From IMG/VR virus record IMGVR_UViG_2675903606_000023, positions 1-14,859 of that record: a stretch of DNA of 14,859 bases; one strand, given 5' to 3'. Below, piece after piece: positions 1-13,788 of this stretch. The notes below the pieces were generated by a model, which made no database searches, was not told where the DNA came from, and saw only the letters and a program-made list of their open reading frames with translations. Position 1 is the stretch's first letter. Every line of letters begins with the position of its first letter. The position numbers and the translations under genes are program-made. Origin of the DNA: a virus (Duplodnaviria; Heunggongvirae; Uroviricota; Caudoviricetes).

Positions 1-74
1 CCCGTAACGCCTCTGCCACGCGCGTAACGTGACAGGGATTAAGGGTAAACTAACTGATTTTGCAAGTTTTTATT

Positions 75-1361
75 TTACCCAACTTTCTTATGGGGCATAC
101 ATGGGACACTTTCAGATAGTCTTTTGTTAAGGAGTTCTATCTGTTCGTGATTGTTGTCTTTCATCCATGCTCCGTAAACATTGAATACCATTTGTGCGTT
201 TGTGTGGCCCATCTGGCTTGCGATAAAACTAGGATTAGCTCCAGCGGCAAGTGACCAGCATGCATAAGTATGCCTGGATTGGTACGATTTTCTGTGTCTC
301 AGACCTGCGCGTTTTAAGATACTTGTCCATGACTCCCTGATGGAGTCAACTTTGTAGTGAGGTCCAGACAACTGCTGCTGTTTTATTACCTGAGGGCTAA
401 AAACAAAAGTACATTTATGCACAGCTGTTCTCCCATATTCCCTCTGCTTTACCTCTACAGAATGTTGCTTTCCAAGCATGGTCATTTCCGCCTGGCTTTT
501 AAGAGCATCAATAGCTGGTTGAACCAGATGAATTGTCCTTCCGGTGCCAGCATCGGTTTTTGGTGGAGTGAATTCGCCAAGTTTTGTATAATTCCTACGG
601 ATGGTTATAGTCCTTGCTTTAAGATCTATATCTTCCCATGCCAGCGATACCAGCTCCCCGTGACGAATACCCGTGTATACAGCGAGAATCCACAGGTTTT
701 TTGTTTGTTGATGACGGCAAGCCTCAATAAAACGAATAAATTCGTCACGGGTGAGAGGATCTGGTTTTACCTTGGACTTTTTTAAGGGAGCCAGACCGTT
801 AAATGGGTTTCCTGAGGTATAACCATTATCTGTTGCAAATTGAAACATTCCAGCTATGGTTGTCATATAGTAGTTTACCGTGACCACTGAGCGCCCTTTT
901 ATGGAAGAAGTCTTTCCATTAGAAAGCTTTTGGTAACCGGTCAACAAATCTCTCCTTACGAAAAGTAAATCCTCTTTTGTTATGGATGAAACCAGTTTTT
1001 TTTCACCTAACATTGGTAACATGTTTTTAATTACTGACTGGTAACGGTTATGTGCATTCGCACAAATCTCAATTTTCTTAAGGTCCAACCATTTTTCCGA
1101 AAGTGCCTTAACGGTTATCTCTCTTTTTCCCAGACCAAAGTGTTTCAGGTTAGGGGAATTAGGGAACTGCGCGGCGTAGTCGAAACTCCCCATTCTGATT
1201 GCAAAACAAACGGAAGTGCGAAGTTCACCAGCGATCTTCCGGTTTTTGGCTGTGTCAGGAACACCGAGGTTTTCTCTGACACGTTTGCCATTATAGTGAA
1301 ACCATATACGGAGTGATCCTCCATGGTTTTCAACGCCTGTCGGGTATGATGCGTTACTCAT
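75..1361 (-). CDS. int: Tyrosine-type site-specific integrase (phage integrase family)
   Basis: 428-aa ORF; conserved tyrosine recombinase boxes visible in translation (TGIRHGEL; SRHTYACW...QMGHTNAQMVFNVYGAW); GGAGG Shine-Dalgarno 4-5 nt upstream of ATG at 1361; sits directly downstream of an Xis-like gene. Confidence 0.9.
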   Translation of the reverse strand: MSNASYPTGVENHGGSLRIWFHYNGKRVRENLGVPDTAKNRKIAGELRTSVCFAIRMGSFDYAAQFPNSPNLKHFGLGKREITVKALSEKWLDLKKIEICANAHNRYQSVIKNMLPMLGEKKLVSSITKEDLLFVRRDLLTGYQKLSNGKTSSIKGRSVVTVNYYMTTIAGMFQFATDNGYTSGNPFNGLAPLKKSKVKPDPLTRDEFIRFIEACRHQQTKNLWILAVYTGIRHGELVSLAWEDIDLKARTITIRRNYTKLGEFTPPKTDAGTGRTIHLVQPAIDALKSQAEMTMLGKQHSVEVKQREYGRTAVHKCTFVFSPQVIKQQQLSGPHYKVDSIRESWTSILKRAGLRHRKSYQSRHTYACWSLAAGANPSFIASQMGHTNAQMVFNVYGAWMKDNNHEQIELLNKRLSESVPCMPHKKVG

Positions 1362-1394
1362 TAAACCTCCCAGACGTCCAGGAGCATTAACAGG

Positions 1395-1649
1395 TTAACC
1401 GGAACTTGCATTTTTGGCACCTGGTTGTTTCTGGTTTTCGATCCATCGCATAATTTCTTCGATGTTGTACAGGCATTCACTGTAGTGCCCCGGATCACCT
1501 TCTACAGCGTAATGGCGGTATTCTTTTCCCTGCATCCATGACTTTCTTCTTGCCCGCTCAATGGTGCCAGGCTTTAGCCCTGTTGATGCAATGAGGACTC
1601 TCTCCGTACACCATTTGCTGGGGGTTATCTGATAGATGATTGTCTGCAT
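1395..1649 (-). CDS. xis: Excisionase-like small DNA-binding protein (Xis)
   Basis: 84-aa ORF immediately upstream of int on the same strand; AGGAG SD 6 nt upstream of ATG; sequence pattern (W...RW...GKEYRHY) resembles the winged-helix Xis family. Family call is from memory, not a search. Confidence 0.6.
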   Translation of the reverse strand: MQTIIYQITPSKWCTERVLIASTGLKPGTIERARRKSWMQGKEYRHYAVEGDPGHYSECLYNIEEIMRWIENQKQPGAKNASSG

Positions 1650-1805
1650 GCCAAGCTCCTAAAACGTTTATCCGCGGCAGTGGCACCACACTTCAAACAT
1701 TCGTCTCACAATTTCGCGACAGTAGAAACCGTCAACATCTCGCGTCAGGTCATAGCGACTGCCATAACGCTGGTGGACCCATAGTTCAAATGCTTTATTC
1801 ACTCT

Positions 1806-2048
1806 TCACTTCCTTTTCATGGCGCGTAATTTTTTCAGGTGAGCTTCCTGCTCTGTTTCTGCCAGTATTTGTCGGTATTCCTGGTGATCAATATGTTCAA
1901 ACTGGTTGTTGAATTCACTGATGCGTACTCGACCGGAGTGTCCGTCCATGCGTCGAAAGAACACTGAGTGCTCAGTGCTGCGAGTAATCACCACAGGGTA
2001 TCCGGTCCTGTCCGTGTATATTTGCCCGCGTTGAATAAGTGTGAACAT
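1806..2048 (-). CDS. Hypothetical phage protein (80 aa from ATG at 2048; ORF is open up to 2081)
   Basis: ORF with GGGGA SD about 7 nt upstream of ATG at 2048, which lies 4 nt after the stop of the upstream gene; no recognisable family. Confidence 0.45.
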   Translation of the reverse strand: MFTLIQRGQIYTDRTGYPVVITRSTEHSVFFRRMDGHSGRVRISEFNNQFEHIDHQEYRQILAETEQEAHLKKLRAMKRK

Positions 2049-2052
2049 GTGG

Positions 2053-2682
2053 TTATCCCCAGCGGCAAATCGCAAAAACAATCAGCGCGATCGACATTGC
2101 AACACCAACAATTGCAAATGCATCAGGCCAGGTCATTGATTCACCTCCTGCGGCGGCTCTGGTAGCTGCATCCAGAACAAGGCGTTCCCTAACCACGATA
2201 AACATTCGCTCACTACAGCTTATCCAACCATCCGGAGTTACCGGAGAGTTGCCGGGTTCTTTAATGTGCAAGCGAGGCTCACCATCTTTTGGTTCAGGCC
2301 ACTGGCGCTTCATGTTGATCTTCAATTTATCTTCCATAGCAGCGGTAATTTCAGCATCACTGATACCAGCACGGCGCTGTGCATCCCACAACAGGAACTG
2401 CATATCAGCCCACTCGCTGAGATCGTCAGGTTCGGCTGCGGCTTCCAGAGCCTCTTTTGAGAGATGTTTCAGCGGACCAATGGGGCCAACGCAGCCAAAT
2501 GTGGAGTCAGACCATTTGGCATGCTCGTGGCGAATCTGTTCGCGTTCCAGTGATGCCAGTGCAATTTTTAATGCGGTAAGCATGTTGTTTTGATCTTCAT
2601 CAAGTCCGAACGGTATTTCATCCCGTGCTGACTCAATGCTGGTAATCGTTTTCTGTAGCCATTCTTTGGTAATAGTGGTCAT
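2053..2682 (-). CDS. Hypothetical early protein, DUF550/MazG-like N-terminal region (tentative) with C-terminal hydrophobic segment
   Basis: 209-aa ORF, AGGAG SD 7 nt upstream of ATG; start lies 2 nt after the stop of the Ea22-like gene; C-terminal AFAIVGVAMSIALIVFAICRWG looks like a transmembrane anchor. The DUF550 assignment is recollection only. Confidence 0.5.
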   Translation of the reverse strand: MTTITKEWLQKTITSIESARDEIPFGLDEDQNNMLTALKIALASLEREQIRHEHAKWSDSTFGCVGPIGPLKHLSKEALEAAAEPDDLSEWADMQFLLWDAQRRAGISDAEITAAMEDKLKINMKRQWPEPKDGEPRLHIKEPGNSPVTPDGWISCSERMFIVVRERLVLDAATRAAAGGESMTWPDAFAIVGVAMSIALIVFAICRWG

Positions 2683-2683
2683 C

Positions 2684-3028
2684 TCACTCTCCTTCTATGC
2701 GAATACCAGCAGCAGTCAGTGCTGCATTGACCTCATCAGCGTAGTAGTACGTTAATCCACTTGATGATTTAGCCAGCTTGAATGGTTCTGGTAACTTCAC
2801 TGTGCGGGACTCCTGTTCGTCGATACGCTGTTTTGCTTCCTCCAGTTCATCCAGCAAATCAGCGATAATATCCACTTCACGATGACGGATTTCTCTCTTA
2901 AACGCAGCCAAAGCTGCATCACAATCCTGCTCAGCATTTGGACTGTCTGGATTTTCCTGATACCACGCCAGCGTCGATTGATAGTTTTGTGCCGCCTCAC
3001 GCAATGCCTGATAGTCAATCTTGCTCAC
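2684..3028 (-). CDS. Ead/Ea22-like protein
   Basis: 114-aa ORF starting at GTG with AGGAGG SD 6 nt upstream; N-terminal MSKIDYQALREAA... resembles lambdoid Ea22/Ead-like proteins; position between xis and the immunity region matches the lambda ea22 location. Confidence 0.55.
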   Translation of the reverse strand: MSKIDYQALREAAQNYQSTLAWYQENPDSPNAEQDCDAALAAFKREIRHREVDIIADLLDELEEAKQRIDEQESRTVKLPEPFKLAKSSSGLTYYYADEVNAALTAAGIRIEGE

Positions 3029-3329
3029 TGGCTGCCTCCTTTGCCGGGATTTCTAACTTTTGAGTGGTTGTATCAAATTCAAACAACTTAACCACGTCAT
3101 CAAACAGGACATAATCACCATCAGGATCTTCAGTCATATCTGCGCCACAATCCTGACCGCACGAGTCGCAACCATCCATATCAAGCTCGTATCGCTTCAG
3201 GTTTGCGATATTTGATAAATTCAGCGCCAGTACAGCCAGGTCATAAACCTCTTCGGCAGTGACATCGCTGTTCAGTCCCATTTCATGGCGATATATGATT
3301 TTTTCTACTCGTTGTTTTGTGATCGTCAT
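3015..3329 (-). CDS. Hypothetical acidic phage protein (start uncertain: TTG 3353, ATG 3329 or ATG 3281)
   Basis: ORF 3015..3353; the ATG at 3329 has an AAGAG/GGAG SD-like purine stretch upstream; 3' end overlaps the Ea22-like start by 14 nt; acidic, Cys-containing C-terminal half. Confidence 0.45.
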   Translation of the reverse strand: MTITKQRVEKIIYRHEMGLNSDVTAEEVYDLAVLALNLSNIANLKRYELDMDGCDSCGQDCGADMTEDPDGDYVLFDDVVKLFEFDTTTQKLEIPAKEAASEQD

Positions 3330-3600
3330 TTTTCTCTTCACTCCGATATACAAGGATTACTACACCCCCTCTGCTGATTGCGCGAGCTGGATCCCCTGGT
3401 TCCATGCCGTCAATTCCGAAGGCTTCGGAAAACGCATTCATTGCCTTCTGGCGTTCATCCTGCTTACGGCGTTTATTCCATTTTTTCAGGAACAACAGCG
3501 ACAGCCACCGTCCGCTGCAGAACACGATGTAAAAATAACCAAGGAGCGCCAGGCCGACATTCAGGGCCGTTTCTATGGTTAGTTGTGAGTCAGTTGCCAT
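3283..3600 (-). CDS. Small putative membrane protein (single N-terminal transmembrane helix, basic juxtamembrane segment)
   Basis: 105-aa ORF; N-terminal hydrophobic stretch LTIETALNVGLALLGYFYIVFCSG followed by KKWNKRRKQDERQK; overlaps neighbouring genes at both ends. Confidence 0.45.
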   Translation of the reverse strand: MATDSQLTIETALNVGLALLGYFYIVFCSGRWLSLLFLKKWNKRRKQDERQKAMNAFSEAFGIDGMEPGDPARAISRGGVVILVYRSEEKNDDHKTTSRKNHISP

Positions 3601-3838
3601 TTCTTACCTGTTTAAGTAACTGGTTGAACATAACACTTAGGGGATTGCTGTATCCAAACGGCAGATTGTTTACGCAGTACAGAATCATTTTGTTTTTTTC
3701 TCCAGTTCGTACTATTAACCCATTCCACAATAACCGTGATAATTCATTACTGATAGAAGTTGCGCTTCTTCCAAGTGCGAGGGATATATCTTCTCTACTG
3801 CAATCTGGATTTTCCTGGATATACTCGATAACGGTCAT
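3590..3838 (-). CDS. Small hypothetical protein with helix-turn-helix-like segment
   Basis: ORF 3590..3880; the ATG at 3838 has an AAGGGA SD about 6 nt upstream and lies just after the stop (3849) of the upstream gene; SREDISLALGRSATSISNELSRLL resembles a winged-helix recognition region. Confidence 0.5.
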   Translation of the reverse strand: MTVIEYIQENPDCSREDISLALGRSATSISNELSRLLWNGLIVRTGEKNKMILYCVNNLPFGYSNPLSVMFNQLLKQVRNGN

Positions 3839-3848
3839 GTGGTCCCTT

Positions 3849-4430
3849 TTACTTAATATCTGTTTCGGATTGCATGCCATGAGTATTCATTTCGTTAATA
3901 ATTTCATCCAGAAGGATTTCAAGCCCTTCTCGACCCATATCTGAAAGAATGAAACCTTTATCAGGGGAAGTAGTGAGCATTTTCTGATAAAGAAACAGCG
4001 CTCTTCCCATTCCTTCAGCTTCGCCGTATTTTTGAATTAAATTCCATTCAATATACTGTTGTAAGGCAAATCGAATGGGGCCGGGATATATCGTCATAAA
4101 CCCATACATCCCGTTATATACCACGGCGTGTTCAGTTGTTCCGTGTTCATTCAGGATATCAATTGTGCCGTTCTTGTCTTCTTCTTCGTTGATGAATGCC
4201 GTCACATACAACCATCGCCACTGAGCAACCTTCATCTCAACCGGAAGTTTACCCAGTAATCCTGCTTCGTCGGCTTGCGCCAGACACTGAAGGATACGTA
4301 AACCTCGCACATTAGGAGTATCGAATTCTCCGGCATCCAGACGACGTATGGCGTCGTGATAATCAATCGTCATACTGCCAGTTCGTATACCATTGGCTGT
4401 TGCTTCAGCCTGGAATTCATCGTATTGCAT
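3849..4430 (-). CDS. Hypothetical phage protein (193 aa), function unknown
   Basis: Long ORF with GAGGAA SD about 9 nt upstream of ATG at 4430; coding-like composition; no family recognised by eye. Confidence 0.55.
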   Translation of the reverse strand: MQYDEFQAEATANGIRTGSMTIDYHDAIRRLDAGEFDTPNVRGLRILQCLAQADEAGLLGKLPVEMKVAQWRWLYVTAFINEEEDKNGTIDILNEHGTTEHAVVYNGMYGFMTIYPGPIRFALQQYIEWNLIQKYGEAEGMGRALFLYQKMLTTSPDKGFILSDMGREGLEILLDEIINEMNTHGMQSETDIK

Positions 4431-4435
4431 GATAT

Positions 4436-4630
4436 TTATTCCTCATCTTCATCTTCATCTTCATCTGCTGGTGCAATAACGTCATATCCTGCCTTTTCTG
4501 CAATAAACAGGAATGTTGAAAGAGTTCCTACAAGTTCATCGTCATGAACATGGCGAATGAATATTACTTTCCCGTTTTTGATGGTCAGCAATATTCTGGT
4601 TTGTTCGTGTTCTGCTGTTTTCTGATGCAT
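4436..4630 (-). CDS. Small protein with poly-acidic C-terminal tail (…ADEDEDEDEE)
   Basis: 64-aa ORF, GGGAGA SD 6 nt upstream of ATG at 4630; the C-terminal tail is encoded by the (TCATCT)x4 repeat at 4443..4466. Confidence 0.5.
   Translation of the reverse strand: MHQKTAEHEQTRILLTIKNGKVIFIRHVHDDELVGTLSTFLFIAEKAGYDVIAPADEDEDEDEE
4443..4466. repeat. Hexanucleotide tandem repeat (TCATCT)x4 encoding an alternating Asp/Glu tail
   Basis: Four perfect tandem copies read directly from the sequence, in frame at the 3' end of the 64-aa ORF. Confidence 0.9.
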
Positions 4631-4632
4631 TA

Positions 4633-4746
4633 TTATCTCCCGTATGCTTTACGCAGAAATAAGCAGGCAATATGCATGTAATTTTCACCGTATTGTGCAA
4701 TAAGGCAGGCGGTCTTGTGTGATGCCATATTCTTTATAAAAGTCAC
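4633..4746 (-). CDS. Candidate small ORF (37 aa from GTG 4746; 31 aa from ATG 4728), not in the supplied ORF track
   Basis: GGAGG (4758..4754) lies 7 nt upstream of GTG at 4746; the reading frame runs to a TAA at 4635..4633, 2 nt before the ATG of the 64-aa gene. Translation: VTFIKNMASHKTACLIAQYGENYMHIACLFLRKAYGR. Confidence 0.25.
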   Translation of the reverse strand: MTFIKNMASHKTACLIAQYGENYMHIACLFLRKAYGR

Positions 4747-4824
4747 AATAAAGCCTCCTGTGGATTAAGGTTGTAACAATCCCCGGCGATAAAACCGCAA
4801 TAAACGTTCAGGGCATATTTGTTG

Positions 4825-5190
4825 TTATTGCGCTAATTCTTTTTCGGCAGCAGCTTTTGTATACTCACATGCAAAACTCAGAATTTCGCTGCCGAGTGTT
4901 TTCGTTTCGTGATTACTGGACATATGTAATACCTGTGTTGCATGCAATAAATGATAAACATTTACCGCAAATGAATCAGGCTCCAGACAAATGCCTTCGT
5001 AATTATCTTGCTGTGAGGTTGTTTCTGTCATTGCTCCTGAAGTGCATGCGAGCCTGTTTTTGACAATTCTCTTTTCTCTAATCACTATATCGGCAACATC
5101 TATTGCCTTTACAACCTCCGGGAGAAGTTCCGGGTTTGTATAATCAAAGTCATCAACATGGAGAACAGTTATGTTTTCGAACTTTTTCAT
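4825..5190 (-). CDS. Hypothetical phage protein (121 aa), function unknown
   Basis: ORF with AGGAAG SD about 4-5 nt upstream of ATG at 5190; no recognisable family. Confidence 0.55.
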   Translation of the reverse strand: MKKFENITVLHVDDFDYTNPELLPEVVKAIDVADIVIREKRIVKNRLACTSGAMTETTSQQDNYEGICLEPDSFAVNVYHLLHATQVLHMSSNHETKTLGSEILSFACEYTKAAAEKELAQ

Positions 5191-5318
5191 GGCTTCCTCA
5201 GCTGACTTATATGTTCTGCTATATAGCGAGTCTCAGAAGTGTTTTCATATTGAGACTGTTTCCGCAATGATTGATAAAAATGTTCGCATGTACCTTGAAG
5301 GGCGAAGCGGCGATTATG

Positions 5319-5867
5319 TCACCATTGGTATTGGTTCTTCCGCAGAAGAGCTTCGCGAGATAAGGGGCAAACTTGTTGAGATGCGTCATGGTGTTGCTGC
5401 TCCTCACTTTTTGGTTGCTCCGGAGGAGTAACCTCACCAGTTAACAGGCACATCGGATCGCAGCCAAGAATATTTGCCAGTGGGATAAGCATACTGATAG
5501 TTGGTTCATACTCTCCGCTCTCCCACTGGATGATAATTTCTTCATCGAGATCGAGCAGCCTGGCGAGTTCGGCGGTTGTTAAGCCGCAGGCTTCGCGTTG
5601 GGTGCGAAGGTTAACCAGCCAGCTTTCAGGGAAGGATTGTTTTTGTTGTGCAGGAGAAGCAGCAGATAGAGCATATTCATGGATAAATTCCATTACCTCA
5701 ATGCCCAGTTCCTTTGAGCGAGCACAATCCAGAAGATGGAATGTGCGTACAGCACTTAGCAAATTTGCAATATTTAATGCAAAGGAATCAAGTTCTAAGC
5801 CCTTAAGCGTAACACAGCCGCAGTTGATAAAATTAGTTGTTTCTGGAGTTGCTTTTAGTGTCTTCAT
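5319..5867 (-). CDS. Protein with C-terminal XRE-family helix-turn-helix domain and uncharacterised N-terminal domain (ORF open to TTG at 5897)
   Basis: HTH_XRE-like segment LRTQREACGLTTAELARLLDLDEEIIIQWESGEYEPTISMLIPLANILG in the C-terminal half; ATG at 5867 has a GGCGGA SD-like element upstream; first gene downstream of the PL-like promoter. Confidence 0.6.
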   Translation of the reverse strand: MKTLKATPETTNFINCGCVTLKGLELDSFALNIANLLSAVRTFHLLDCARSKELGIEVMEFIHEYALSAASPAQQKQSFPESWLVNLRTQREACGLTTAELARLLDLDEEIIIQWESGEYEPTISMLIPLANILGCDPMCLLTGEVTPPEQPKSEEQQHHDASQQVCPLSREALLRKNQYQW

Positions 5868-5920
5868 ATATCCGCCAACAATTTTAAATTGAATCAAATC
5901 AAGTTATAATTGATGGTGCG

Positions 5921-5949
5921 ATATTATGTTTTGGGAAACAGGCTGTCAA
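5921..5949 (-). promoter_or_regulatory. Candidate leftward early promoter (PL-like): -35 TTGACA, 17-bp spacer, -10 TAATAT
   Basis: Minus strand reads TTGACA (5949..5944), a 17-nt spacer, then TAATAT (5926..5921); flanked by two TCAA-N7-TTGA inverted repeats (5898..5914 and 5946..5960) that could be repressor operators. Confidence 0.55.
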
Positions 5950-5978
5950 GAAAAAATTGATATCGTATATTTCAGGCA

Positions 5979-6003
5979 GAAAAAAAACGGGCAAAGCCCG
6001 TTA
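5979..6003 (-). terminator. Rho-independent terminator downstream of cI
   Basis: On the minus strand: 7-bp stem AACGGGC/GCCCGTT with a 3-nt loop (6003..5987), followed by a run of 8 U; begins 10 nt after the cI stop codon. Confidence 0.75.
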
Positions 6004-6013
6004 AAATCAAAGA

Positions 6014-6703
6014 CTAACCAAATCTGTTTATGTTGAATGGTACTGATGAGATCACTTTAGACTGGATATAAAGCAGAGCTAACCCCTCTTTTTCGATGCT
6101 CCATGGTTGATAATTGGGGTTATCAGATAACACCATGATTTTGCTTCCAATTTTTTGAAGCCTTTTCACGTAGCATTCTCCATCAAAACAAAATGCATAA
6201 ATACCATCGCCATCAAAATAAGTTACTGTCTTATCAAGAAAAAGAAGGTCGCCAGGTGAGATTGTGGGAGCCATACTGTCTCCTCTGGCGTTACCTATTT
6301 CTATATTTTTGAATGCCCGATTTCCAACAAGACGTCGGGCATATTCAGGATCAAGTTCTATTGAGCGCACTACATCTATCAAGTCACCACGGACATGAGT
6401 TCCATCACCGCAACTAAACTCAACATCAAGGACATTAAATACGACGCTATCTGTTCTTGTCTGGTGTTTCTCTTGCGAAGAAAAGGTTGGTGAGGAGTCT
6501 TCACCTAAGAACCAGGATTGTGGATAACCGCTAATCTCTGATAAATGCGCGAGCTTATCACTCCGTGGAAATGTTTTTCCTGTTGTCCAGTACTGCACTG
6601 ATTGCGCACTCACACCTAACTTGCGGGCCAGTTGAGCCTGAGTCCATCCTTTTGCTTTCAGCATCGCGGCTATTCGATTTTCCGTGTTTTTGACGTTCTT
6701 CAT
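6014..6703 (-). CDS. cI: CI-like prophage repressor (N-terminal HTH, C-terminal S24 LexA-like peptidase domain)
   Basis: N-terminal HTH (RIAAMLKAKGWTQAQLARKLGVSAQSVQYW); C-terminal autocleavage motifs GDSMAPTI (Ser) and YVKRL (Lys); AGGA SD 7 nt upstream of ATG at 6703 (ORF open to TTG at 6709); divergent from a Cro-like gene. Confidence 0.85.
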   Translation of the reverse strand: MKNVKNTENRIAAMLKAKGWTQAQLARKLGVSAQSVQYWTTGKTFPRSDKLAHLSEISGYPQSWFLGEDSSPTFSSQEKHQTRTDSVVFNVLDVEFSCGDGTHVRGDLIDVVRSIELDPEYARRLVGNRAFKNIEIGNARGDSMAPTISPGDLLFLDKTVTYFDGDGIYAFCFDGECYVKRLQKIGSKIMVLSDNPNYQPWSIEKEGLALLYIQSKVISSVPFNINRFG

Positions 6704-6709
6704 GACCAA

Positions 6710-6836
6710 ATCCTGTGGGTTTCTTTACAAGGATAAATCTTTACTTGATTTTAGTGTATTCGATCCTTTTGCAACTTGCATGTTAATTTAAACTTGATGT
6801 ATTCTTGATTTATAAAGTTAATATTGGTGCTTTGTT
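6710..6836. promoter_or_regulatory. Divergent cI/cro intergenic control region (OR/PR/PRM equivalent) with repeated CTTGAT motifs
   Basis: 127-bp AT-rich spacer between divergent cI and cro-like genes; CTTGAT occurs at 6744..6749, 6793..6798 and 6804..6809 (the last two 11 bp apart); candidate -35/-10 hexamers present but not uniquely assignable by eye. Confidence 0.6.
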
Positions 6837-7127
6837 ATGGAAGGAAATGATTACGACAAACTTCGTGCATTAATTGCGCAAAATGCCATAGCGCGAAATC
6901 TTGGTGTGACGCCGCAAGCGGTGAATCAGTGGTTTTCAAAAAGCACAATTCCTGCTCGTTTCGTTTTACGAGTATGTGAAGTAGTTGCATGGAAGGTTAC
7001 GCCTCATGGCTTAAGGCCAGATCTTTATCCTCACCCTGAAGATGGAATTCCTAACTTGTTACGCAAAAGCCTAAATCCAAGTTCACCACACAGAGCGGAT
7101 GGAATACACGCAGGAGATAAACAATGA
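6837..7127 (+). CDS. Cro-like transcriptional regulator (YdaS/Cro-type HTH)
   Basis: 96-aa ORF divergent from cI; HTH segment IARNLGVTPQAVNQWFSKSTIP; pattern resembles the YdaS-type Cro analogues of Rac-like prophages. Confidence 0.7.
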   Translation: MEGNDYDKLRALIAQNAIARNLGVTPQAVNQWFSKSTIPARFVLRVCEVVAWKVTPHGLRPDLYPHPEDGIPNLLRKSLNPSSPHRADGIHAGDKQ

Positions 7128-7831
7128 ACACCGCAATTTTTAACGGCAAAGCATCCATGACCAGCGTTGAGATCGCAGAGCTGGTGGGAAGCCGACCAGA
7201 TAGTGTTAAGAGAACTATTGAAACACTGGCTAAAAAGGGAATCATCCAATTTCCACAGACTGTGGAAATTGAGAATAAACAATCACTTGGGCCTCGCCGA
7301 TTTTCTAGCGCGTATGTATTCGAAGGTGAACGAGGTAAGCGCGACAGCATCATTGTCGTCGCACAGCTCTGTCCTGAATTCACTGCTCGCCTGGTAGATC
7401 GCTGGCGCGAACTGGAAGAACAGATCCGTAAGCCAATGAGCGAAATCGAAATGGTTGCCGCGATGGCTCTTGAAGCAGTTCGTCAGCAGAAACGGATCAC
7501 TCAGGTGGAAGAAAAAGTCAGCCACGTTGCTGAAACAGTCGAGCAAATTAAAAAGGGCACTATTCGTGAGGGCTATGCCGGATATCGCCAACTGAAAGCA
7601 AAAACCGGTTTGTCAGATGATAAATGCCGCAATCTGGTGAACGCCTATCAGATTCCTACAGACACCCATGAGTTCATGACGCCGGACGGATTGTTGTCAC
7701 GTCGCGCAATTGTTGCTGTGGAACCGTTTATGGCTGCTTTTTATCGGGTTATGGAGGAAGCAGAACCGCGAGGGACTCGCTGGTATCACCCGAAAATGGG
7801 GTTATTTCAGGTTATTGGTTGGCAGCGGTGA
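7124..7831 (+). CDS. Phage regulatory protein with Rha/antirepressor-like N-terminal DNA-binding region (tentative)
   Basis: 235-aa ORF whose ATG overlaps the cro-like stop (ATGA at 7124..7127); GGAG SD 8 nt upstream; N-terminal SVEIAELVGSRPDSVKRTIETL resembles the Rha-family HTH signature. Confidence 0.55.
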   Translation: MNTAIFNGKASMTSVEIAELVGSRPDSVKRTIETLAKKGIIQFPQTVEIENKQSLGPRRFSSAYVFEGERGKRDSIIVVAQLCPEFTARLVDRWRELEEQIRKPMSEIEMVAAMALEAVRQQKRITQVEEKVSHVAETVEQIKKGTIREGYAGYRQLKAKTGLSDDKCRNLVNAYQIPTDTHEFMTPDGLLSRRAIVAVEPFMAAFYRVMEEAEPRGTRWYHPKMGLFQVIGWQR

Positions 7832-7854
7832 AAAAAAGCCGGGAGTAACCCGGC
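7831..7854 (-). terminator. Hairpin with U-tract on the minus strand (antisense-oriented intrinsic terminator) abutting the stop codon of the 235-aa gene
   Basis: GCCGGG (7838..7843), loop agtaa, CCCGGC (7849..7854); the plus strand has A7 immediately 5' of the stem (7831..7837), so the canonical U-tract is on the minus-strand transcript. Confidence 0.5.
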
Positions 7855-8053
7855 TCACTCAACATCAATAACGGGGAGCTGTTTCGCATAAAACGGCTCC
7901 GAAACATCCAAGAACAGTTCTAAAGATATCAGCAGCTATATGATCATTTCAAGACCAAATATTGATTCTGCAATTTCGGGACGTTACACTGTCTCCGCAC
8001 CTTATAAAGCGGGTGCCGGGGGTCGCAGCCCGGAATTGTCAACGGCGATATAT

Positions 8054-8073
8054 GACGCGCCAGCGTCTTTTTT
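8054..8073 (+). terminator. Candidate weak rho-independent terminator (tR1-like position)
   Basis: GACGC-gcca-GCGTC 5-bp GC-rich stem with tetraloop, followed by T6 (8068..8073), in the untranslated spacer downstream of the 235-aa regulator. Confidence 0.4.
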
Positions 8074-8239
8074 ATCGTCCGCGCTCACGCACGCCAGAAT
8101 TATGGTGGGCTGGGCAGGGGAGCCGAAAGGCTCGCCGGTCTCCGTTGACGCCGGTACTGCGAACCCTGTTCAGTCTGCCACCAGTGAGTTTCGCAGCTCC
8201 GGTGGTGGAAGTTTTCCACAGTCAACGGAGGCTGCCATC

Positions 8240-8602
8240 ATGGCTACTGTCCCAACTTCCCCATACCTGAAAATTGAAGTTGTCAACGGCAAGGCCGTTA
8301 TTTTCTCCCTGCATGTTGCCTGCCACTTTAAGCGAATGCACCAGAACATCGTTGACAAAATCGAGTATCTGAACTGCTCACGCGAGTTTTTTACCCGCAA
8401 TTTCATACCGGGTACTTATCACATCTACGGTGACTCCCTGCGTGGTTATTACATCACTCTTGATGGCCTGATGATGCTTCAGCTTGGGTTAAGTCTGCGC
8501 ACAATGCGGTACTACGAGAGCTGCATTGAGGCATTCCATGAAGCTGAAACCAGCCTGAATCATACAGCTTTCCGCTGTAATCAATGGGAGGTGCGCCCAT
8601 GA
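8240..8602 (+). CDS. Rha-family phage regulatory protein (120 aa from ATG 8240)
   Basis: GGAGG SD 8 nt upstream of ATG at 8240; segments FKRMHQNIVDKIEYL and YHIYGDSLRGYYITLDGLMMLQLGLS match the Rha-family pattern as I remember it. The upstream in-frame extension to 7940 has non-coding-like composition and no SD. Confidence 0.55.
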   Translation: MATVPTSPYLKIEVVNGKAVIFSLHVACHFKRMHQNIVDKIEYLNCSREFFTRNFIPGTYHIYGDSLRGYYITLDGLMMLQLGLSLRTMRYYESCIEAFHEAETSLNHTAFRCNQWEVRP

Positions 8603-8832
8603 TTCGCCGCCTCGTTAATTCTCTGTATCACCGATACAACCGTTGCCCCCGTGTGGGGCAGTGGTTCGCCACCAGCGACGGTCGCGTTCTGCGGGTTTGC
8701 CTGGTCAGCACCGAAAGCCAGAAAGTTGTGTGTGAATTACTGGGGCGTAACTACACCATCAGTTACCCACTAGTGGCGTTTCAGTCCGGAAAAATGTTTA
8801 AACGCCTGGGAGGTGGCTATGCGTCCGTCTGA
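8599..8832 (+). CDS. Small hypothetical protein (77 aa)
   Basis: ATG at 8599 overlaps the stop of the preceding gene (ATGA) and is preceded by GGGAGG at a 7-nt spacing; Cys- and Arg-rich; no family recognised. Confidence 0.45.
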   Translation: MIRRLVNSLYHRYNRCPRVGQWFATSDGRVLRVCLVSTESQKVVCELLGRNYTISYPLVAFQSGKMFKRLGGGYASV

Positions 8833-9712
8833 TCTTCTGCTCGATTTTGGGCATCCGGTTGCTTATTACCCTGGGCTCGTTAAATACATGGGAAGTCCGC
8901 ACGCTGTTATTTTCTTTGGTCAGATTTTTTACTGGCAGGATAAAGCACATGCAGCGGAAGGCGTACATAAAACGCGTGAAGAGATACAACACGAAACCGG
9001 ACTTACATTTGAACAACAGGCTGTAGCGCGTAAGCATCTTGTGTCCAGAGGCATTTTGGTTGAAACCAACAAGCGTCTTGAGCACAAAATGTTCTACCGT
9101 ATAGATTGTGAGCGCCTTAATGAAATTATCAATGAAAACAATCAGTTTTCCCGAAATGGGGAAACCCGTTTTCGGGAAACTGTAAAACCCAATTTCGCGG
9201 AGGAGGGAAAGCCTTCACCGCGGACACGGGAAACCCCTCGCCGCGGTGAAGGGAAAACCAATTTCGATCTTACAGAGAATACAACAGAGATTACTTCAGA
9301 GAGTACTACAGAGAGTAAAAACACTATTGGCGCATCCGCTGACGCGTCTGCACCAGCGCGTTCTGCCCGACAGGAATATTCACCGGAATTTGAACAGGCA
9401 TGGCAGGAATATCTCAAACGTGCTGGTGGCAATTCCAAGTCAGCAGCCTTCAAAGCCTGGAAAGCACGTATCAGGGAGGGAATAAAACCGGAGAACATGC
9501 TTGATGGCGTGAAGCGGTATGCCGCCTGGGTGCGTGTCTCTGGAAATACCGGTACCCAGTTCGTGAAGCAGGCGTCGACGTTCTTTGGACCCGATCGTCA
9601 TTTCGAGGAATCCTGGCAACAGCCAGCAGCCCCCGGAGGTGGGCGGGGCAAAAGCCTCCCGATCTCGGGATTCAGTGAACAGGACTACGGCTCAACGAAC
9701 TTCAACTGGTGA
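8819..9712 (+). CDS. Replication initiator / replisome organiser (lambda O-like functional position) with internal origin-like repeats
   Basis: GGGAGG SD 5 nt upstream of ATG at 8819 (ORF open to GTG at 8813); N-terminal winged-helix-like region; low-complexity linker encoded by iteron-like DNA (9147..9316); followed by a DnaC-like loader and DnaB-like helicase. Confidence 0.7.
   Translation: MRPSDLLLDFGHPVAYYPGLVKYMGSPHAVIFFGQIFYWQDKAHAAEGVHKTREEIQHETGLTFEQQAVARKHLVSRGILVETNKRLEHKMFYRIDCERLNEIINENNQFSRNGETRFRETVKPNFAEEGKPSPRTRETPRRGEGKTNFDLTENTTEITSESTTESKNTIGASADASAPARSARQEYSPEFEQAWQEYLKRAGGNSKSAAFKAWKARIREGIKPENMLDGVKRYAAWVRVSGNTGTQFVKQASTFFGPDRHFEESWQQPAAPGGGRGKSLPISGFSEQDYGSTNFNW
9147..9316. 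repeat. Iteron-like repeat cluster (GGGAAAC-type repeats and palindromes) followed by ACAGAGA-type repeats: candidate replication origin inside the initiator gene
   Basis: GGGAAA(A/G)C at 9159, 9174, 9205, 9228 and 9251; palindromic arms TTTTCCCGAAA/TTTTCGGGAAA and CACCGCGG/CCGCGGTG flank two of the copies; ACAGAGA-like repeats at 9271..9316. Confidence 0.55.
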
Positions 9713-9731
9713 TTTTGTGGGGAGGGTGAAA

Positions 9732-10622
9732 ATGACTAATTTCCTGAACAAACAACACATGCAACACGACAAAGCGCAGTTACTTAACCGCAAGGCAGAC
9801 CTGGAAGAGGAGCTGGCATTTGTCCGTGGCGGAAAGCGTCCGTGGCGCTGTGAGCATTGGGTGCAAAGCACTGAGACGGTGTCCTGCGGGAAACACGGAA
9901 AATACACGCGCTATGTGCTGACTGGCCCGGATGTAAGGGGGAAAGCTGTCAAACGGGTGTCCGGTTGCCTGTCCTGCCTCAGTGAGGAGCTGGGCCGCGT
10001 GTATGACGAATTACGCGCCCTGAAGGTTCGTGAATTACTCGATCAGGCCGGTATTGCCCGCCGGTTCCAGGACTGTGAGTTTGAGAATTATCAGGCGGTG
10101 AATACTGACGCACAGAAAAACCTTGAAGCCTGTCAGCGCTATGCCGCTTCCTGGAAGAAATGTCTCGCTGCAGGCACCAGCATGGTCATGATTGGCAATT
10201 GTGGTACCGGTAAAAATCACCTGGCTGTATCAATGGCAAAAAATATTATTCGCCACCACCAGGCAACCATAGAAATCACGGATGTAATGCGGCTTACCCG
10301 TGCGGTGAAAAATACCTGGCGCCACAACTCTGAGCGCACTGACGATGAAGTGATTAATCATTTTGCATCGCTGGATCTGCTTATCATCGATGAGGTTGGT
10401 GTGCAGTTCGGTACGCCTGCGGAGATAACCATCCTGCAGGAAATCATAAATGCGCGTTACGAAAGCGTTTTACCGACAATTTTGATCAGCAACCTGACGT
10501 TTGAACAGCTTAAGGAATCCATTGGTGAACGGATTGTGGATCGCGTTACTGATGGTGGGCGTAACTGCCTGGTGTTTGGTTGGGAAAGCTACCGCGCGCA
10601 TATCAGAGGTGTGGCAGCATGA
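9732..10622 (+). CDS. DnaC-like helicase loader (IstB/DnaC-family AAA+ ATPase) with N-terminal Cys-rich zinc-ribbon-like region
   Basis: Walker A GNCGTGKNHLA and Walker B LLIIDEVG; Cys cluster CEHW..CGKHG..CLSCL; GGAGGG SD 5 nt upstream of ATG at 9732 (ORF open to 9585). Confidence 0.8.
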   Translation: MTNFLNKQHMQHDKAQLLNRKADLEEELAFVRGGKRPWRCEHWVQSTETVSCGKHGKYTRYVLTGPDVRGKAVKRVSGCLSCLSEELGRVYDELRALKVRELLDQAGIARRFQDCEFENYQAVNTDAQKNLEACQRYAASWKKCLAAGTSMVMIGNCGTGKNHLAVSMAKNIIRHHQATIEITDVMRLTRAVKNTWRHNSERTDDEVINHFASLDLLIIDEVGVQFGTPAEITILQEIINARYESVLPTILISNLTFEQLKESIGERIVDRVTDGGRNCLVFGWESYRAHIRGVAA

Positions 10623-12019
10623 CAAACCCGACAAATCCGGCGTGGCGTAATGATGACCTGGAAGGAGCTGTCATCGGTGCGTTTTTTCTGCGTGGGGCTG
10701 ATCCGGAAGTGATGGATATTCTGGCCACGCTTCCGGCGGATGTCTTTTTCGTGCGTCAGTACAGGGATATTTACGCGGGAATTTGCAGACAGGCCCGTGT
10801 ATCCGGCGTCATTGACCCCGTACTGCTGTGCAATGAGATGCCGGAACTTGCCCCGGTGATTACCGACACCGGACGCAAAACCTGGGTGAAGTCTTCACTG
10901 GAGCACTATGTCGCAGCGTTGCGGCGTAATGCCGTACTGCGCGATGCAGAAAAAACACTGACTGAAGCATTACAGAATTTACGTGATGCGTATACCTGTG
11001 AAGCAGCCGAGGATGCCCTGAAGGATGCGCAGAACATGATGGCCTCACTGTCGACCGGAAAGGGCGTCATTCAGCCGGTTCACATTGATGATGTCCTTCC
11101 AGAAGTGGTCGACCGTGTTGAATGCCGCAATCAGGGACTGGAGAAATCCAGGGCGCTGATGACCGGTATTGATGAGCTGGACGCAAAAACGGGCGGTATG
11201 GAGCCAGGCGACCTGGTATTCATTGCGGCTCGTCCTTCGATGGGGAAAACCGAACTTGCGCTGGATATCATCGACAAGGTGACTGAGCAGGGGCATGGCG
11301 TGCTTCTGTTCACCATGGAGATGGCGAACATTCAGATTGGTGAACGTATGGTGTCTGCTGCCGGGGGAATGCCGGTATCCCGTCTTAAGTCAGTTGCCCG
11401 TTTTGAAGACGAAGACTGGGCACGTTTCTCACAGGGCGTGGGACGAATGACGGGGCGTAATATCTGGATGGTGGACCAGGCAAACCTGACCATTGATGAG
11501 ATATGTGCAACTACGAGGCACCACCGGATGAAACACCCGGAAACGGCGCTGGTGGTGGTCGATTACCTCGGCCTGATTAAAACCCGCAGCATGGGGCGTC
11601 ACGACCTTGCTGTGGGGGAAATCTCAAAGGGACTAAAAAGCCTGGCAAAATCCGGCGGTTTTCCGCTGATTGCTCTGAGCCAGCTCTCCCGCGGTGTGGA
11701 ATCCAGACCCAATAAACGCCCCATGAACTCGGACCTGAAAAACTCAGGGGAAATAGAGGCGGATGCAGACATCATTCTGATGCTTTACAGGGATGAGGTG
11801 TACAACCCGGAGACACAGGCGAGAGGCATAGCAGAAATCAACATCACGAAACAGCGTAATGGTACGCTGGGTACCATTTACCGGCGTTTTCATAACGGGC
11901 ATTTTCTGCCTGTGGACCAGGAGAGTGCCCGGGTTCTTTCCACTCCCATGACGCCGGGCAATCCGCGCAGATACAGCAATAACCGCATGTCGGGTAGTAA
12001 AACGGAGCGTTTATTTTGA
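10619..12019 (+). CDS. DnaB-like replicative DNA helicase
   Basis: 467 aa from ATG at 10619, which overlaps the loader stop (ATGA); DnaB-type N-terminal domain and RecA-like C-terminal domain with Walker A ARPSMGKTELAL and Walker B-like VVVDYLGLI. Confidence 0.9.
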   Translation: MTNPTNPAWRNDDLEGAVIGAFFLRGADPEVMDILATLPADVFFVRQYRDIYAGICRQARVSGVIDPVLLCNEMPELAPVITDTGRKTWVKSSLEHYVAALRRNAVLRDAEKTLTEALQNLRDAYTCEAAEDALKDAQNMMASLSTGKGVIQPVHIDDVLPEVVDRVECRNQGLEKSRALMTGIDELDAKTGGMEPGDLVFIAARPSMGKTELALDIIDKVTEQGHGVLLFTMEMANIQIGERMVSAAGGMPVSRLKSVARFEDEDWARFSQGVGRMTGRNIWMVDQANLTIDEICATTRHHRMKHPETALVVVDYLGLIKTRSMGRHDLAVGEISKGLKSLAKSGGFPLIALSQLSRGVESRPNKRPMNSDLKNSGEIEADADIILMLYRDEVYNPETQARGIAEINITKQRNGTLGTIYRRFHNGHFLPVDQESARVLSTPMTPGNPRRYSNNRMSGSKTERLF

Positions 12020-12273
12020 ACAACAGAACAACCACTGTTTCACCGGAACAACTTCGTCGGCAGGCGCAGGAGATGCTTCGTTGTGCTGAACAGATGGAAA
12101 AAACGAGCGTGAAAAAAGATACGCTCCGCAAGCAGCTTACTCCGGCGCTTCGTGATCTGCTGCAGGCAAAACACCGCACACAAAAGGCGGTGGATGAGCT
12201 GGTGGATTGCGTGGCGGAACTGGAAGGACAGGTAAGCCAGTTTGAAATACTGGTGAAGGAGTTTACTGCGTGA
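12016..12273 (+). CDS. Hypothetical coiled-coil protein (85 aa), TTG start overlapping the helicase stop
   Basis: TTG at 12016 overlaps the TGA of the helicase gene (TTGA); GGAG 8 nt upstream; charged, helix-rich composition. Confidence 0.45.
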   Translation: MNNRTTTVSPEQLRRQAQEMLRCAEQMEKTSVKKDTLRKQLTPALRDLLQAKHRTQKAVDELVDCVAELEGQVSQFEILVKEFTA

Positions 12274-12318
12274 TGGCTGAATTTTTTCTTCTGCGCTCAT
12301 GCAATACCGTTCGCTGAG

Positions 12319-13314
12319 GTGACCGTGAGAGCACTACTGACCCCTGAAATTGCCCCGCGTATGGGGATCGTATTGTTCAGGCCCGGTTCAGAGCTGATGC
12401 CCCTGTTTATGCAGGGGCGTGTCCTGCTGGAGCCTGAGCCGGAACGTTATTCATCTTTTGCCAGTGGTGCCGTTCCGGCGGCATCACAACCGCTGGCGGA
12501 TGATCCTGCCGTTCGGGCCGTGTTCCGCAATGAGGCAGTGATCCGTCGTGCTGGTGGCGTGGAATGTCTTGAAAGCTGGTTACTTCGTGAAAAGGGCTGT
12601 CAGTGGCCTCATTCCAACTGGCACAGCGAGAACATGACCACAATGCGACACGCTCCGGGCGCAATCCGTCTGTGCTGGCACTGCGATAACCAGCTGCGCG
12701 ATCAGTTCACGGAACGGCTGGAATCAATGGCAACGGATAACTGTGCCCGCTGGGTGTTGTCTGTTGTGCGTCGGGATCTCGGTTTTGATGACAGTCACGT
12801 TGTGACAATGCCGGAACTGTGCTGGTGGCTGGCTCGTAATGACCTGGCTGATGCCTTACCGGAAAGTGCAGCCCGTAAGGCACTGAGATTACCGAAGCCT
12901 GTTGTGCCGTCTGTCACCCGGGAGAGTGACCTTGTTCCTTCGGTTCCTGCCACCAGCATTATCCAGGATAAAGCGAAAAAGGTGCTGGCGCTGAAAGTGG
13001 ATCCAGAGTCGCCGGAGTCTTTTATGTTACGCCCAAAACGTCGTCGCTGGGTTAATGAAAAGTACACGCGCTGGGTTAAGACACAGCCGTGTGCATGTTG
13101 TGGTAAGCCAGCCGACGATCCTCATCACCTGATTGGTCATGGTCAGGGTGGAATGGGTACAAAAGCGCATGACCTTTTTGTGTTGCCTTTGTGCAGAAAA
13201 CACCATGACGAACTGCATGCGGATACCGTGGCATTTGAAGAGAAGTATGGTTCCCAACTGGAGCTGATATTTCGTTTTATCGATCGCGCGCTGGCGATTG
13301 GTGTGCTGTCCTGA
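12319..13314 (+). CDS. DUF968-like protein with C-terminal HNH-like Cys/His motif (putative nuclease); start uncertain
   Basis: 331-aa ORF from GTG at 12319; C-terminal CACCGKPADDPHHLIGHGQGGMGTKAHDLFVLPLCRKHHDELH; located immediately upstream of Q, as in Qin-type prophages. Confidence 0.6.
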   Translation: MTVRALLTPEIAPRMGIVLFRPGSELMPLFMQGRVLLEPEPERYSSFASGAVPAASQPLADDPAVRAVFRNEAVIRRAGGVECLESWLLREKGCQWPHSNWHSENMTTMRHAPGAIRLCWHCDNQLRDQFTERLESMATDNCARWVLSVVRRDLGFDDSHVVTMPELCWWLARNDLADALPESAARKALRLPKPVVPSVTRESDLVPSVPATSIIQDKAKKVLALKVDPESPESFMLRPKRRRWVNEKYTRWVKTQPCACCGKPADDPHHLIGHGQGGMGTKAHDLFVLPLCRKHHDELHADTVAFEEKYGSQLELIFRFIDRALAIGVLS

Positions 13315-13331
13315 TTTTGTGGAGAAAGTTG

Positions 13332-13712
13332 ATGCGTGATATTCAGATAGTTCTTGAACGCTGGGGGGCATGGGCTGCAAGTGGTAACACCGGGGTGGAC
13401 TATTCTCCGATCGCTGCCGGATTCAAAGGACTTTTACCATCTGCCACTAAACCACGTCCGGCCTGCTGCGATGATGACGGACTTATCATTGAAAACTGTC
13501 TTGCTCGTCTGAAGCAGAAAAAACCTGAGGAGTATTCGCTTCTCATTGCTCATTATTTGTTGCGAATATCAAAAAGACAGATAGCCAGGACGAGAAAGAA
13601 AAGCGAAAAAGCAATACGAATTGAGATGCAGATAGCCGAAGGGTTTATTGACGGATGTTTGTCTGTGCTGGGGGTAAGACTGGAGATGGACGACTGGCTG
13701 CTAAAAAAGTAA
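13332..13712 (+). CDS. Late-gene antitermination protein Q (QuuD-like family)
   Basis: 126 aa from ATG at 13332 (GGAG SD 7 nt upstream; ORF open to TTG at 13317); MRDIQIVLERWGAWAA...IAAGFKGLL...CCDDD...EGFIDGCLSVLGVRLEMD matches the QuuD-type Q pattern from memory. Confidence 0.6.
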   Translation: MRDIQIVLERWGAWAASGNTGVDYSPIAAGFKGLLPSATKPRPACCDDDGLIIENCLARLKQKKPEEYSLLIAHYLLRISKRQIARTRKKSEKAIRIEMQIAEGFIDGCLSVLGVRLEMDDWLLKK

Positions 13713-13767
13713 AAAATGATTAGTGCGGTCCGCAAAAAGTATGTCAGTATGTTAAGAGTGGTTACTT

Positions 13768-13788
13768 CGCCCGCGAGCGGGTTTTTTT
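13768..13788 (+). terminator. Rho-independent terminator about 55 nt downstream of Q (tR'-like)
   Basis: GC-only stem CCCG/CGGG with tetraloop CGAG (13770..13781), followed by T7 (13782..13788). Confidence 0.6.

Follow-up and report, generated by a model that had tools for sequence, protein, structure and literature searches.

Small genes of the early-left operon in a lambdoid Escherichia coli prophage: layout, conservation and probable regulatory content

The DNA examined here, called the window, is a stretch of 14,859 nucleotides (nt) from a Caudoviricetes virus (IMG/VR record IMGVR_UViG_2675903606_000023, positions 1 to 14,859). Between its Ea22-like gene and its immunity region, the window carries a block of small leftward genes, lettered A to G, which adjoins the gene of a helix–turn–helix (HTH) regulator, H. 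The block forms the main part of an early-left (PL-type) operon that belongs to a mosaic lambdoid prophage of Escherichia coli, situated at mlrA (yehV); the prophage possesses an antiterminator Q and is without an N-like gene at the PL-proximal position. With moderate confidence, the operon is read as one that is repressed by cI and composed of a regulatory cassette, H-G-F-E(-D), in which D is Cnr-like, followed by the swappable genes C-B-A; it is regarded neither as a recombination module nor as a recognisable island of defence or anti-defence genes. The recognisable content points to regulators (H, C and G) and to a Cnr-like replication-regulator domain (D).

Layout of the operon and conservation of its cassette

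An earlier note on this DNA, made from the letters and a list of open reading frames (ORFs), had placed a run of leftward genes here, and these genes have proved to be real. The ORF list contains B, D, E, F and G at the coordinates given in Table 1, and C as a longer frame, 3590–3880. The window was aligned with five loci at 72–90% identity (a Stx1a-converting phage, phiP27 and three E. coli prophages), and substitutions at codon positions 1, 2 and 3 were counted. They number 43/29/93 in D, 23/13/32 in E, 10/3/17 in F and 25/20/37 in the core of G; since they pile up at third positions, these four are coding sequences and not chance ORFs. The block ORFs are also unbroken almost throughout about 80 further viral contigs. 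F, a 37-aa micro-ORF that the earlier note had listed as a mere possibility, has stop codons or gaps in none of the five divergent loci and is conserved across genera; its codon pattern likewise marks it as coding.

The overlaps and Shine–Dalgarno sequences indicate that the genes form one translationally coupled operon. An AGGAGG Shine–Dalgarno sequence precedes F; the stop codon of F is separated from the ATG of E by 2 nt, that of E from the ATG of D by 5 nt and that of D from the ATG of C (3838) by 10 nt. From C onwards, each gene overlaps the next: C and B, B and A, and A and the Ea22-like gene. No strong leftward terminator is predicted within the operon, and an Rfam scan revealed no RNA family within the block.

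Between the predicted terminator of the cI-like gene and gene H lies the best sigma-70 match of the region, a PL-like promoter candidate. It is flanked or overlapped by two operator-like palindromes, TCAAGnnnnnnTTGAT, which make up direct-repeat family D1, and their half-site CTTGAT recurs in the cI–cro intergenic region (6743–6810). The palindromes are taken as the putative OL and the promoter as the putative PL. The first gene after this putative PL is H, with its XRE-type HTH, and not N; as no strong internal terminator is predicted, an N-type antiterminator seems to be unneeded. Upon inactivation of cI, PL would transcribe H through A as one unit, and F, E and D would be translationally coupled.

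The block resembles the PL operon of lambda in its location between the immunity region and xis/int, in its orientation, in the presumed cI-controlled early transcription, in the Ea22-like gene at the distal end and in an opposite-strand gene right after the first gene, as RefSeq places lambda sieB just downstream of N. Its assignment to the early-left arm, with the Ea22-like gene on one side and the immunity region on the other, agrees with the RefSeq layout of a near-identical prophage in E. coli O111:H8 strain 8E. The proteins, however, differ: apart from Ea22 there is no homologue of the lambda PL proteins, the first gene encodes an HTH protein instead of N and recombination genes are missing. 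A comparison of all block proteins with 21 lambda proteins (phmmer --max) gave a best E of 0.026 at about 5 bits, and a hidden Markov model (HMM) of the D family was also without similarity to them; the only stronger lambda match (E = 0.011, 6.8 bits) was the expected Ea22–Ea22 pair in the flank. Searches with phmmer, Pfam, PHROG and NCBIfam found no block protein similar to lambda N, SieB, Ral, Ea10, CIII, Kil, Gam, Bet or Exo, and no structural similarity of the block proteins to the lambda Red, Gam, Kil, CIII, Ral or SieB functions was found. Family scans of the larger ORFs of the window contained no Exo, Bet, Gam or other recombinase. The absence of Exo, Bet and Gam, suspected in the earlier note, is thus borne out by three lines of evidence: the family scans, the RefSeq record of the near-identical prophage and the search against the lambda PL proteins; homology to lambda Exo, Bet, Gam, Kil or Ral, named there as the finding that would overturn its view, was looked for and none was found.

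Synteny was analysed in IMG/VR loci with full flanks, anchored on G and independently on F, a sample dominated by close relatives. All 64 F-anchored loci contain H, G, F and E, and 48 contain D; the 86-aa gene, which lies between H and G, is present in 48 and on the opposite strand in every one (48/48), while 37 loci have C and 31 have B. In other prophages, D is followed by a 62-aa gene, an SPFH protein and DUF5406 instead of C-B-A. Judging by these counts and by the alternative genes after D, the operon has a conserved proximal cassette and swappable distal genes. The variability of the block that the earlier note proposed to examine by gene-neighbourhood comparison therefore applies to C-B-A and the 86-aa gene, whereas H-G-F-E is conserved, with D in most relatives. 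The note had missed the 86-aa gene, as well as the membership of H in the same cassette as G-F-E.

Homology to related loci breaks at about 3872, 5010, 5277 and 5436, and in sequence comparisons D, E, F and the G core (3872–5010) move as a unit. The H-G-F-E-D core is found, with different distal genes, in Stx1a-converting phages, in phiP27 and in other E. coli prophages. Phage PhiR49_2 has the whole block at 99.4% identity; the Stx1a-converting phages have the same genes (Stx1a14040_100 to _160) over window positions 3326–5010 at about 89–92%, and phiP27 (L06–L10) has them over 3872–5277 at 79%. These phages differ in immunity module, in the type of the N-terminal domain of H and in the distal cassette. 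Beyond E. coli, the early-left arm of Klebsiella phage KPP5665-2 contains homologues of F, E and D in the same order, and that of Aeromonas phage AsXd-1 contains homologues of F and D in the same order, with no E homologue detected. One relative, locus L106, encodes between G and F (2707–3333) a 208-aa protein that contains a long tandem repeat (GNAWVFGNAWVSGNAHVF...); the protein looks similar to a beta-helix or bactofilin-like repeat protein and illustrates how readily cargo enters the cassette.

Genes D, G and H

D is the largest gene of the block. Among 1.8 billion representative proteins, 102 relatives of D were found, many of the matches being fragmentary; the full-length relatives are mostly about 190–220 aa long. 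Ten of their clusters were looked up: they come from prophages of Pantoea, Morganella, Erwinia, Klebsiella and Providencia or have no source name, and all the named ones are labelled as hypothetical or prophage proteins. Structure-based searches had been recommended in the earlier note. The AlphaFold model of D (pLDDT 85) has no fold relative in a fold search, the search with G returned generic helical hairpins only, and searches of PDB sequences with D, G, E, C and the D-family profile gave nothing meaningful; the lead to the Cnr protein of phage P4 was provided instead by the genes that neighbour D homologues, and profile comparisons agreed with it. Cnr acts through binding of the alpha initiator protein.

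The D-family HMM matched P4 ORF106 (Cnr) at 18.9 bits (E = 1.9e-4 among 5001 sequences), compared to a best score of 6.6 bits among 5000 shuffles used as a control. An hhalign comparison of the D family with Cnr (E = 2.6e-5, probability 75%) placed residues 116–179 of D on residues 37–101 of Cnr. P4 Cnr belongs to phrog_5991, which is the second-best family, in a common register, for the window D and four other family members (E from 5.5e-5 to 5.8e-3). The C-terminal P..H-COOH is common to the D family and Cnr, which ends in KAPVLH, and more than 90% of 43 D-family members have histidine as the last residue. Gene context points in the same direction. In satellite-like elements of Klebsiella and Enterobacter (L087–L105), a 208-aa D homologue lies directly upstream of a P4-alpha-type primase/helicase gene, the same position that cnr (ORF106) holds in P4; the D homologues of KPP5665-2 and AsXd-1 are situated in the early-left arm, between the repressor and xis/int, and both D and cnr are genes of early-left operons. 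On account of the gene context, the HMM score, the hhalign alignment, the phrog_5991 matches and the shared C-terminus, D is regarded as an extended, remote relative of Cnr, with a Cnr-like C-terminal half, an N-terminal extension of about 60 residues and an inserted beta-sheet, a beta-meander of about 25 aa. Most likely, D would bind a replication initiator or another DNA-binding protein and so alter its activity.

In L087–L105 (about 3000–7000), which are P4-like elements on viral contigs, the D homologue replaces or extends cnr, and it is preceded by conserved genes of 87 aa and 70–76 aa, the latter of which may be the 75-aa family of P4-like satellites. That family has been reported in 61% of P4-like satellites, and the role of Cnr in P4 copy number is supported by the same study (PMC8628076). 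A viral scan with P4 Cnr retrieved near-identical copies only, and P4 proteins other than Cnr showed no similarity to E, F, G or the remaining block proteins.

The second homology concerns G and H. The core of G (about 50 aa) aligns with residues 34–80 of H (BLASTP 9e-10, 43% identity over 47 aa); the alignment of the G core with the N-terminal domain of H has 16 invariant columns, and G and H cross-match each other's PHROG families. By this alignment, the G core is a stand-alone paralogue of the predicted N-terminal helical hairpin of H. The AlphaFold model of G (pLDDT 67) consists of a small alpha/beta N-terminal domain (about 70), a disordered linker and a two-helix hairpin core (about 80). 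Relatedness of the G core to the 70–75-aa family upstream of D in P4-like elements was ruled out, as hhalign found no relation.

The length of G deserves a comment. RefSeq calls the gene as 68 aa, and other lineages have only a 66–68-aa core directly after the HTH gene; the 121-aa form given in the earlier note is nevertheless conserved as a protein, since homologues at 45–67% identity keep the N-terminal part at the protein level (MKKFENIT...ADIV...VKNR). The possibility that the N-terminal 52 aa are non-coding, suggested by a stop codon at one locus and few synonymous changes, was dropped because of the conservation of the 121-aa form down to 45% identity. The long form thus stands for the lineage of the window, while elsewhere only the core is found.

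Within the H family, the HTH is nearly invariant and usually followed by a second HTH, and there are at least four unrelated-looking types of N-terminal domain. The G family is related to N-domain type 2 (hhalign E = 1.4e-5); no relationship with type 3 was detectable by hhalign. One type of G adjoins H proteins with N-domain types 1, 2 and 3, a type-2-like G adjoins a type-3 H, and phiP27, L004 and L106 pair unrelated types of G and H N-domain. Most H-family members (including P0140 and P0166) are about 230 aa long, with two tandem XRE HTH domains. The H proteins of the window, L005 and phiP27 have a single HTH and end like the end of the second repeat (CDPMxLLTG), which is consistent with a deletion via inter-repeat recombination. 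An origin of the odd H tail by deletion was dropped, since a two-HTH family member has the same tail.

The arrangement recalls SinI/SinR and SlrA/SlrR of Bacillus subtilis, where an HTH regulator with a helical oligomerisation-type domain is accompanied by a small neighbour homologous to that domain only; the unit shared by G and H is also predicted to be a two-helix hairpin. Neither H nor G has a Pfam match to the SinI or SinR families, and the shared domain is N-terminal in H but C-terminal in SinR. G has an extra N-terminal domain in the lineage of the window, and the type of G does not co-vary with that of the neighbouring H N-domain. The resemblance is one of working principle and not of family membership, and the heteromer is hypothetical here. 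That G titrates an H-type regulator is an idea and not a finding: most likely, G would modulate such a regulator through mixed oligomers formed via the helical hairpin that the two have in common, much as SinI does with SinR.

Several observations weigh against the reading of the block as a cI-repressed regulatory operon with a Cnr-like gene. The promoter and operators are consensus predictions, and close relatives prevail in the synteny sample. No co-variation in cis of the type of G with the type of the neighbouring H N-domain was found across the loci compared, which speaks against a dedicated G–H pair. The similarity of D to Cnr is remote, and D is about twice as long (193 aa, or about 190–220 aa in the family, versus about 106 aa for Cnr, a single-domain protein). 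Only one of the 43 D-family members matches Pfam DUF5375 (PF17345), the family of Cnr, with E = 0.16, far under the gathering score. The window allele of D ends in GMQSETDIK and has lost the PxxPxxH tail with its conserved histidine; its last eight or so residues are replaced, a loss explained by the recombination junction at about 3872, which falls inside the gene. This allele also occurs in Stx1a phages and has 422 members in the databases. The window is, furthermore, without an alpha-type primase, its replication module being O-like, DnaC-like and DnaB-like, and its D is not located upstream of an alpha-type primase/helicase gene, unlike cnr in P4.

The remaining block genes and alternative readings

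The statement in the earlier note that the block proteins show no recognisable family needs to be qualified. It holds for F, the sole block gene without a PHROG family; D, E and G belong to PHROGs of unknown function only. It does not hold for B, a DUF4752 protein that covers the whole PF15944 profile at 125.8 bits (cut-off 27), and holds only in part for C, which is MarR-like. In Pfam, C reaches 22.9 bits with MarR_2 (E = 9.5e-5, cut-off 27) and 19.8 bits with HTH_24 (cut-off 21.9), and it spans only the winged-helix part of the phrog_1687 profile. The most likely start of C is the ATG at 3838, after the stop codon of D, which gives 82 aa rather than 96; the annotation of Stx1a phages agrees with this start. 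B has one hydrophobic segment, residues 12–30 (Kyte–Doolittle 1.67), as expected of the single-pass membrane protein noted earlier. A literature search yielded nothing on DUF4752, phiP27 L08, the accessions of the block or PhiR49_2, the only phage with the whole block.

E would be a small alpha/beta protein within the proximal cassette H-G-F-E. It has weak matches to the C-terminal regions of anti-repressor PHROGs, and a homologue in KPP5665-2. The acidic tail that the earlier note described for it is present in the window, where it is encoded by a (GAAGAT)n hexanucleotide repeat at 4436–4470 (minus strand); the repeat, a slippage-prone coding microsatellite, ranges from (DE)2E to (DE)8E. Otherwise near-identical prophages differ in the length of the tail and other clades of E have none, so that the tail does not define E. 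Homologues of F, unannotated, are located at the equivalent place in KPP5665-2 and AsXd-1 (46–57% identity), and at least 459 IMG/VR contigs encode an F relative. The last codons of F double as the ribosome-binding site of the next gene, yet the whole peptide is conserved.

An alternative that is unlikely, though it is the one that survives best, is that the block represents host-takeover, anti-restriction or anti-defence cargo, with E as an acidic DNA mimic and D, G and F as inhibitors of host proteins. The block does sit where lambda has kil, cIII, ral and gam, its genes are small and unannotated, and E has its acidic tail in the lineage of the window; the lack of a fold relative, as in D, is common for phage inhibitor proteins, and D-family genes are also present in the early operons of satellites and other phages. 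Against this stand the lack of similarity to lambda Kil, CIII, Ral and Gam and the variable length and patchy occurrence of the E tail. PADLOC-DB gave generic HTH or winged-helix matches for C and H only and nothing for A, B, D, E, F and G, none of which amounts to a real match, and NCBIfam assigned no defence or named family to the block proteins. The cassette H-G-F-E(-D) is conserved as a unit and not hypervariable, and the recognisable domains are all DNA-binding or regulator-like. The earlier description of this arm as a hotspot for host-takeover, anti-restriction and exclusion genes accordingly found no positive evidence in the block, its PADLOC matches being generic and the acidic tail not conserved.

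Somewhat less probable still is a reading in which part of the block serves the lysogen, the 86-aa gene and B acting in superinfection exclusion or defence, like sieB or rex. The 86-aa gene is a coding sequence by several signs: substitutions relative to L004 (about 88% identical there) are distributed 16/12/35 with no stops, and the gene is unbroken in 45 of 45 full-length matches. The gene is convergent with H; it shares 113 nt with the 3′ end of H and 20 nt with the start of G, and is preceded by a GGAG Shine–Dalgarno sequence and a perfect TATAAT. An orientation opposite to PL wherever the gene was found, combined with a Shine–Dalgarno sequence and −10 element of its own, is a layout typical of genes expressed from a repressed prophage, and lambda sieB is likewise an opposite-strand gene just downstream of N; B, for its part, belongs to the swappable distal cassette and is a single-pass membrane protein. 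However, no −35 element was found for the 86-aa gene; its product has no Pfam or NCBIfam match, and its single PADLOC-DB match is at chance level (Cas11a, E = 0.03, 12.9 bits). B has the orientation of the PL operon and shares sequence with the genes on either side, and is therefore probably expressed only after induction. Under the preferred reading, that of a cI-repressed regulatory operon, the 86-aa gene, inserted between H and G, would be expressed from its own promoter while PL is off. Its junction seems to be an insertion hotspot. In phiP27-type loci, a different small plus-strand ORF occupies the place of the 86-aa gene.

More speculative extensions of the preferred reading are improbable as they stand. 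In these, D would be a phage-borne Cnr mimic directed against alpha-primase satellites (P4-like or of the phage-inducible chromosomal island type), or H and G would form a SinR/SinI-type lysis–lysogeny switch that replaces N-dependent control in a lambdoid group that includes Stx1a-converting phages. An anti-satellite D would explain a Cnr-like domain in phages without an alpha-type primase of their own.

That the ORFs are decaying filler in a defective prophage, with the D–Cnr and G–H likenesses as relics, is very improbable: frameshifted D alleles do exist in databases (P0031, P0033–P0035), the window D has lost its conserved C-terminal tail and H is without one of the two HTH domains usual in its family, but third-position bias is seen in all five ORFs tested (D, E, F, G core and the 86-aa gene), the ORFs are unbroken in nearly all of more than 80 loci, the same genes are present in the inducible phages PhiR49_2, phiP27 and Stx1a-converting phages, and F, E and D are conserved across genera.

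Prophage context and significance

A chromosome segment of E. coli O111:H8 strain 8E matches window positions 3000–6000 at 99.7% identity. Of 5426 complete E. coli genomes, 941 have at least part of this region and 103 have 80% or more of it. According to the RefSeq annotation, the O111:H8 counterpart is a prophage integrated adjoining mlrA, with the order integrase, excisionase, small genes, Ea22-like gene, block, HTH gene and cI-like gene, and then rightward regulators and replication genes. Family scans of the larger ORFs of the window gave the same layout (Table 1). To the right of the replication genes, the content of the window departs from that of the O111:H8 prophage, which has a cytosine methyltransferase and a HEPN-like nuclease. 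In the right arm of the window, matches at the Rfam gathering level were obtained on the plus strand for the small RNA isrK (7997–8073, 58.7 bits) and for C4 antisense RNA (8098–8185, 78.8 bits); both fall within the 5′ part of the ORF of an Ash/Rha-type regulator (7940–8602). This module looks like antirepressor control of the P1 c4/ant type (Salmonella isrK type).

Table 1. Features of the window, listed by position; the strand is given where it was recorded
Feature	Position	Strand	Basis or remark
Integrase	75-1361		family scan
Excisionase	1395-1649		family scan
DUF4222 protein and dATP/dGTP pyrophosphohydrolase-domain protein			family scan
Ea22-like gene	2684-3028		family scan
A, 104-aa acidic protein, last before Ea22-like gene	3015..3329	-	phrog_3126 E=5e-64, from residue 9 of longer ORF; RefSeq start
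B, 105-aa single-pass membrane protein, DUF4752	3283..3600	-	PF15944 E=7e-37
C, 82-aa MarR-like winged-helix protein	3590..3838	-	phrog_1687 (annotated MarR-family regulator) E=1.3e-24
D, 193 aa, C-terminal half (about 116-180) Cnr-like	3849..4430	-	phrog_1515 E=9e-90; phrog_5991 E=0.0058
E, 64 aa; core of about 45 aa conserved, acidic (DE)n tail variable	4436..4630	-	phrog_340 E=1e-22
F, 37-aa micro-protein, end ...L[FY]L[KR]KAYG[RK]	4633..4746	-	codon pattern, homologues
G, 121 aa; C-terminal core 4825-5034	4825..5190	-	phrog_5451 and phrog_4587
86-aa gene, moron-like	5171..5431	+	phrog_6104 E=1.4e-49
H, 182 aa, XRE-type HTH regulator with N-terminal helical domain, first operon gene	5319..5867	-	Pfam HTH_3 E=3e-10; phrog_4836
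Two operator-like palindromes	5899-5914 and 5946-5961		flank/overlap promoter; direct-repeat family D1
Predicted PL-like promoter: TTGACA, 17 nt, TAATAT	5921..5949	-	10/12 consensus matches
Predicted intrinsic terminator after cI-like gene	5986..6002	-	7-bp stem, 5 G-C pairs, then eight T
S24-type cI repressor	6014-6709		family scan
cro-like gene	6837-7127		family scan
Right arm: Rha/Ash-type regulators, O-like initiator, DnaC/IstB-like loader, DnaB-like helicase			family scan
DUF968 protein	12319-13314	+	also HNHc-like nuclease match; just upstream of Q
Antiterminator Q	13317-13712		family scan

The observation that prompted this analysis is real, but the block, which belongs to a common lineage of E. 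coli prophages, is less mysterious than first described and is mostly ordinary. The novelty is modest: the block genes extend kinds of phage genes that are already known, and the block is a typical mosaic accessory region whose existence is unsurprising. F and the 86-aa gene are conserved genes omitted by the RefSeq (PGAP) annotation of the near-identical prophage. Parts of the cassette are widespread, in the 941 E. coli genomes mentioned above and in Stx1a-converting phages, yet none of its genes has an assigned role, and the molecular activities proposed here for the block proteins are predictions from their homologies and gene context. Four leads are worth a bench test: the link between D and Cnr, the paralogy of G and H, the micro-protein F and the unannotated 86-aa gene. 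If the assignment of D is true, a Cnr-type protein would offer a concrete handle on replication control or on phage–satellite conflict in lambdoid phages. If G antagonises H-type regulators, the pair would constitute a new early regulatory switch in phages carrying Shiga toxin genes.

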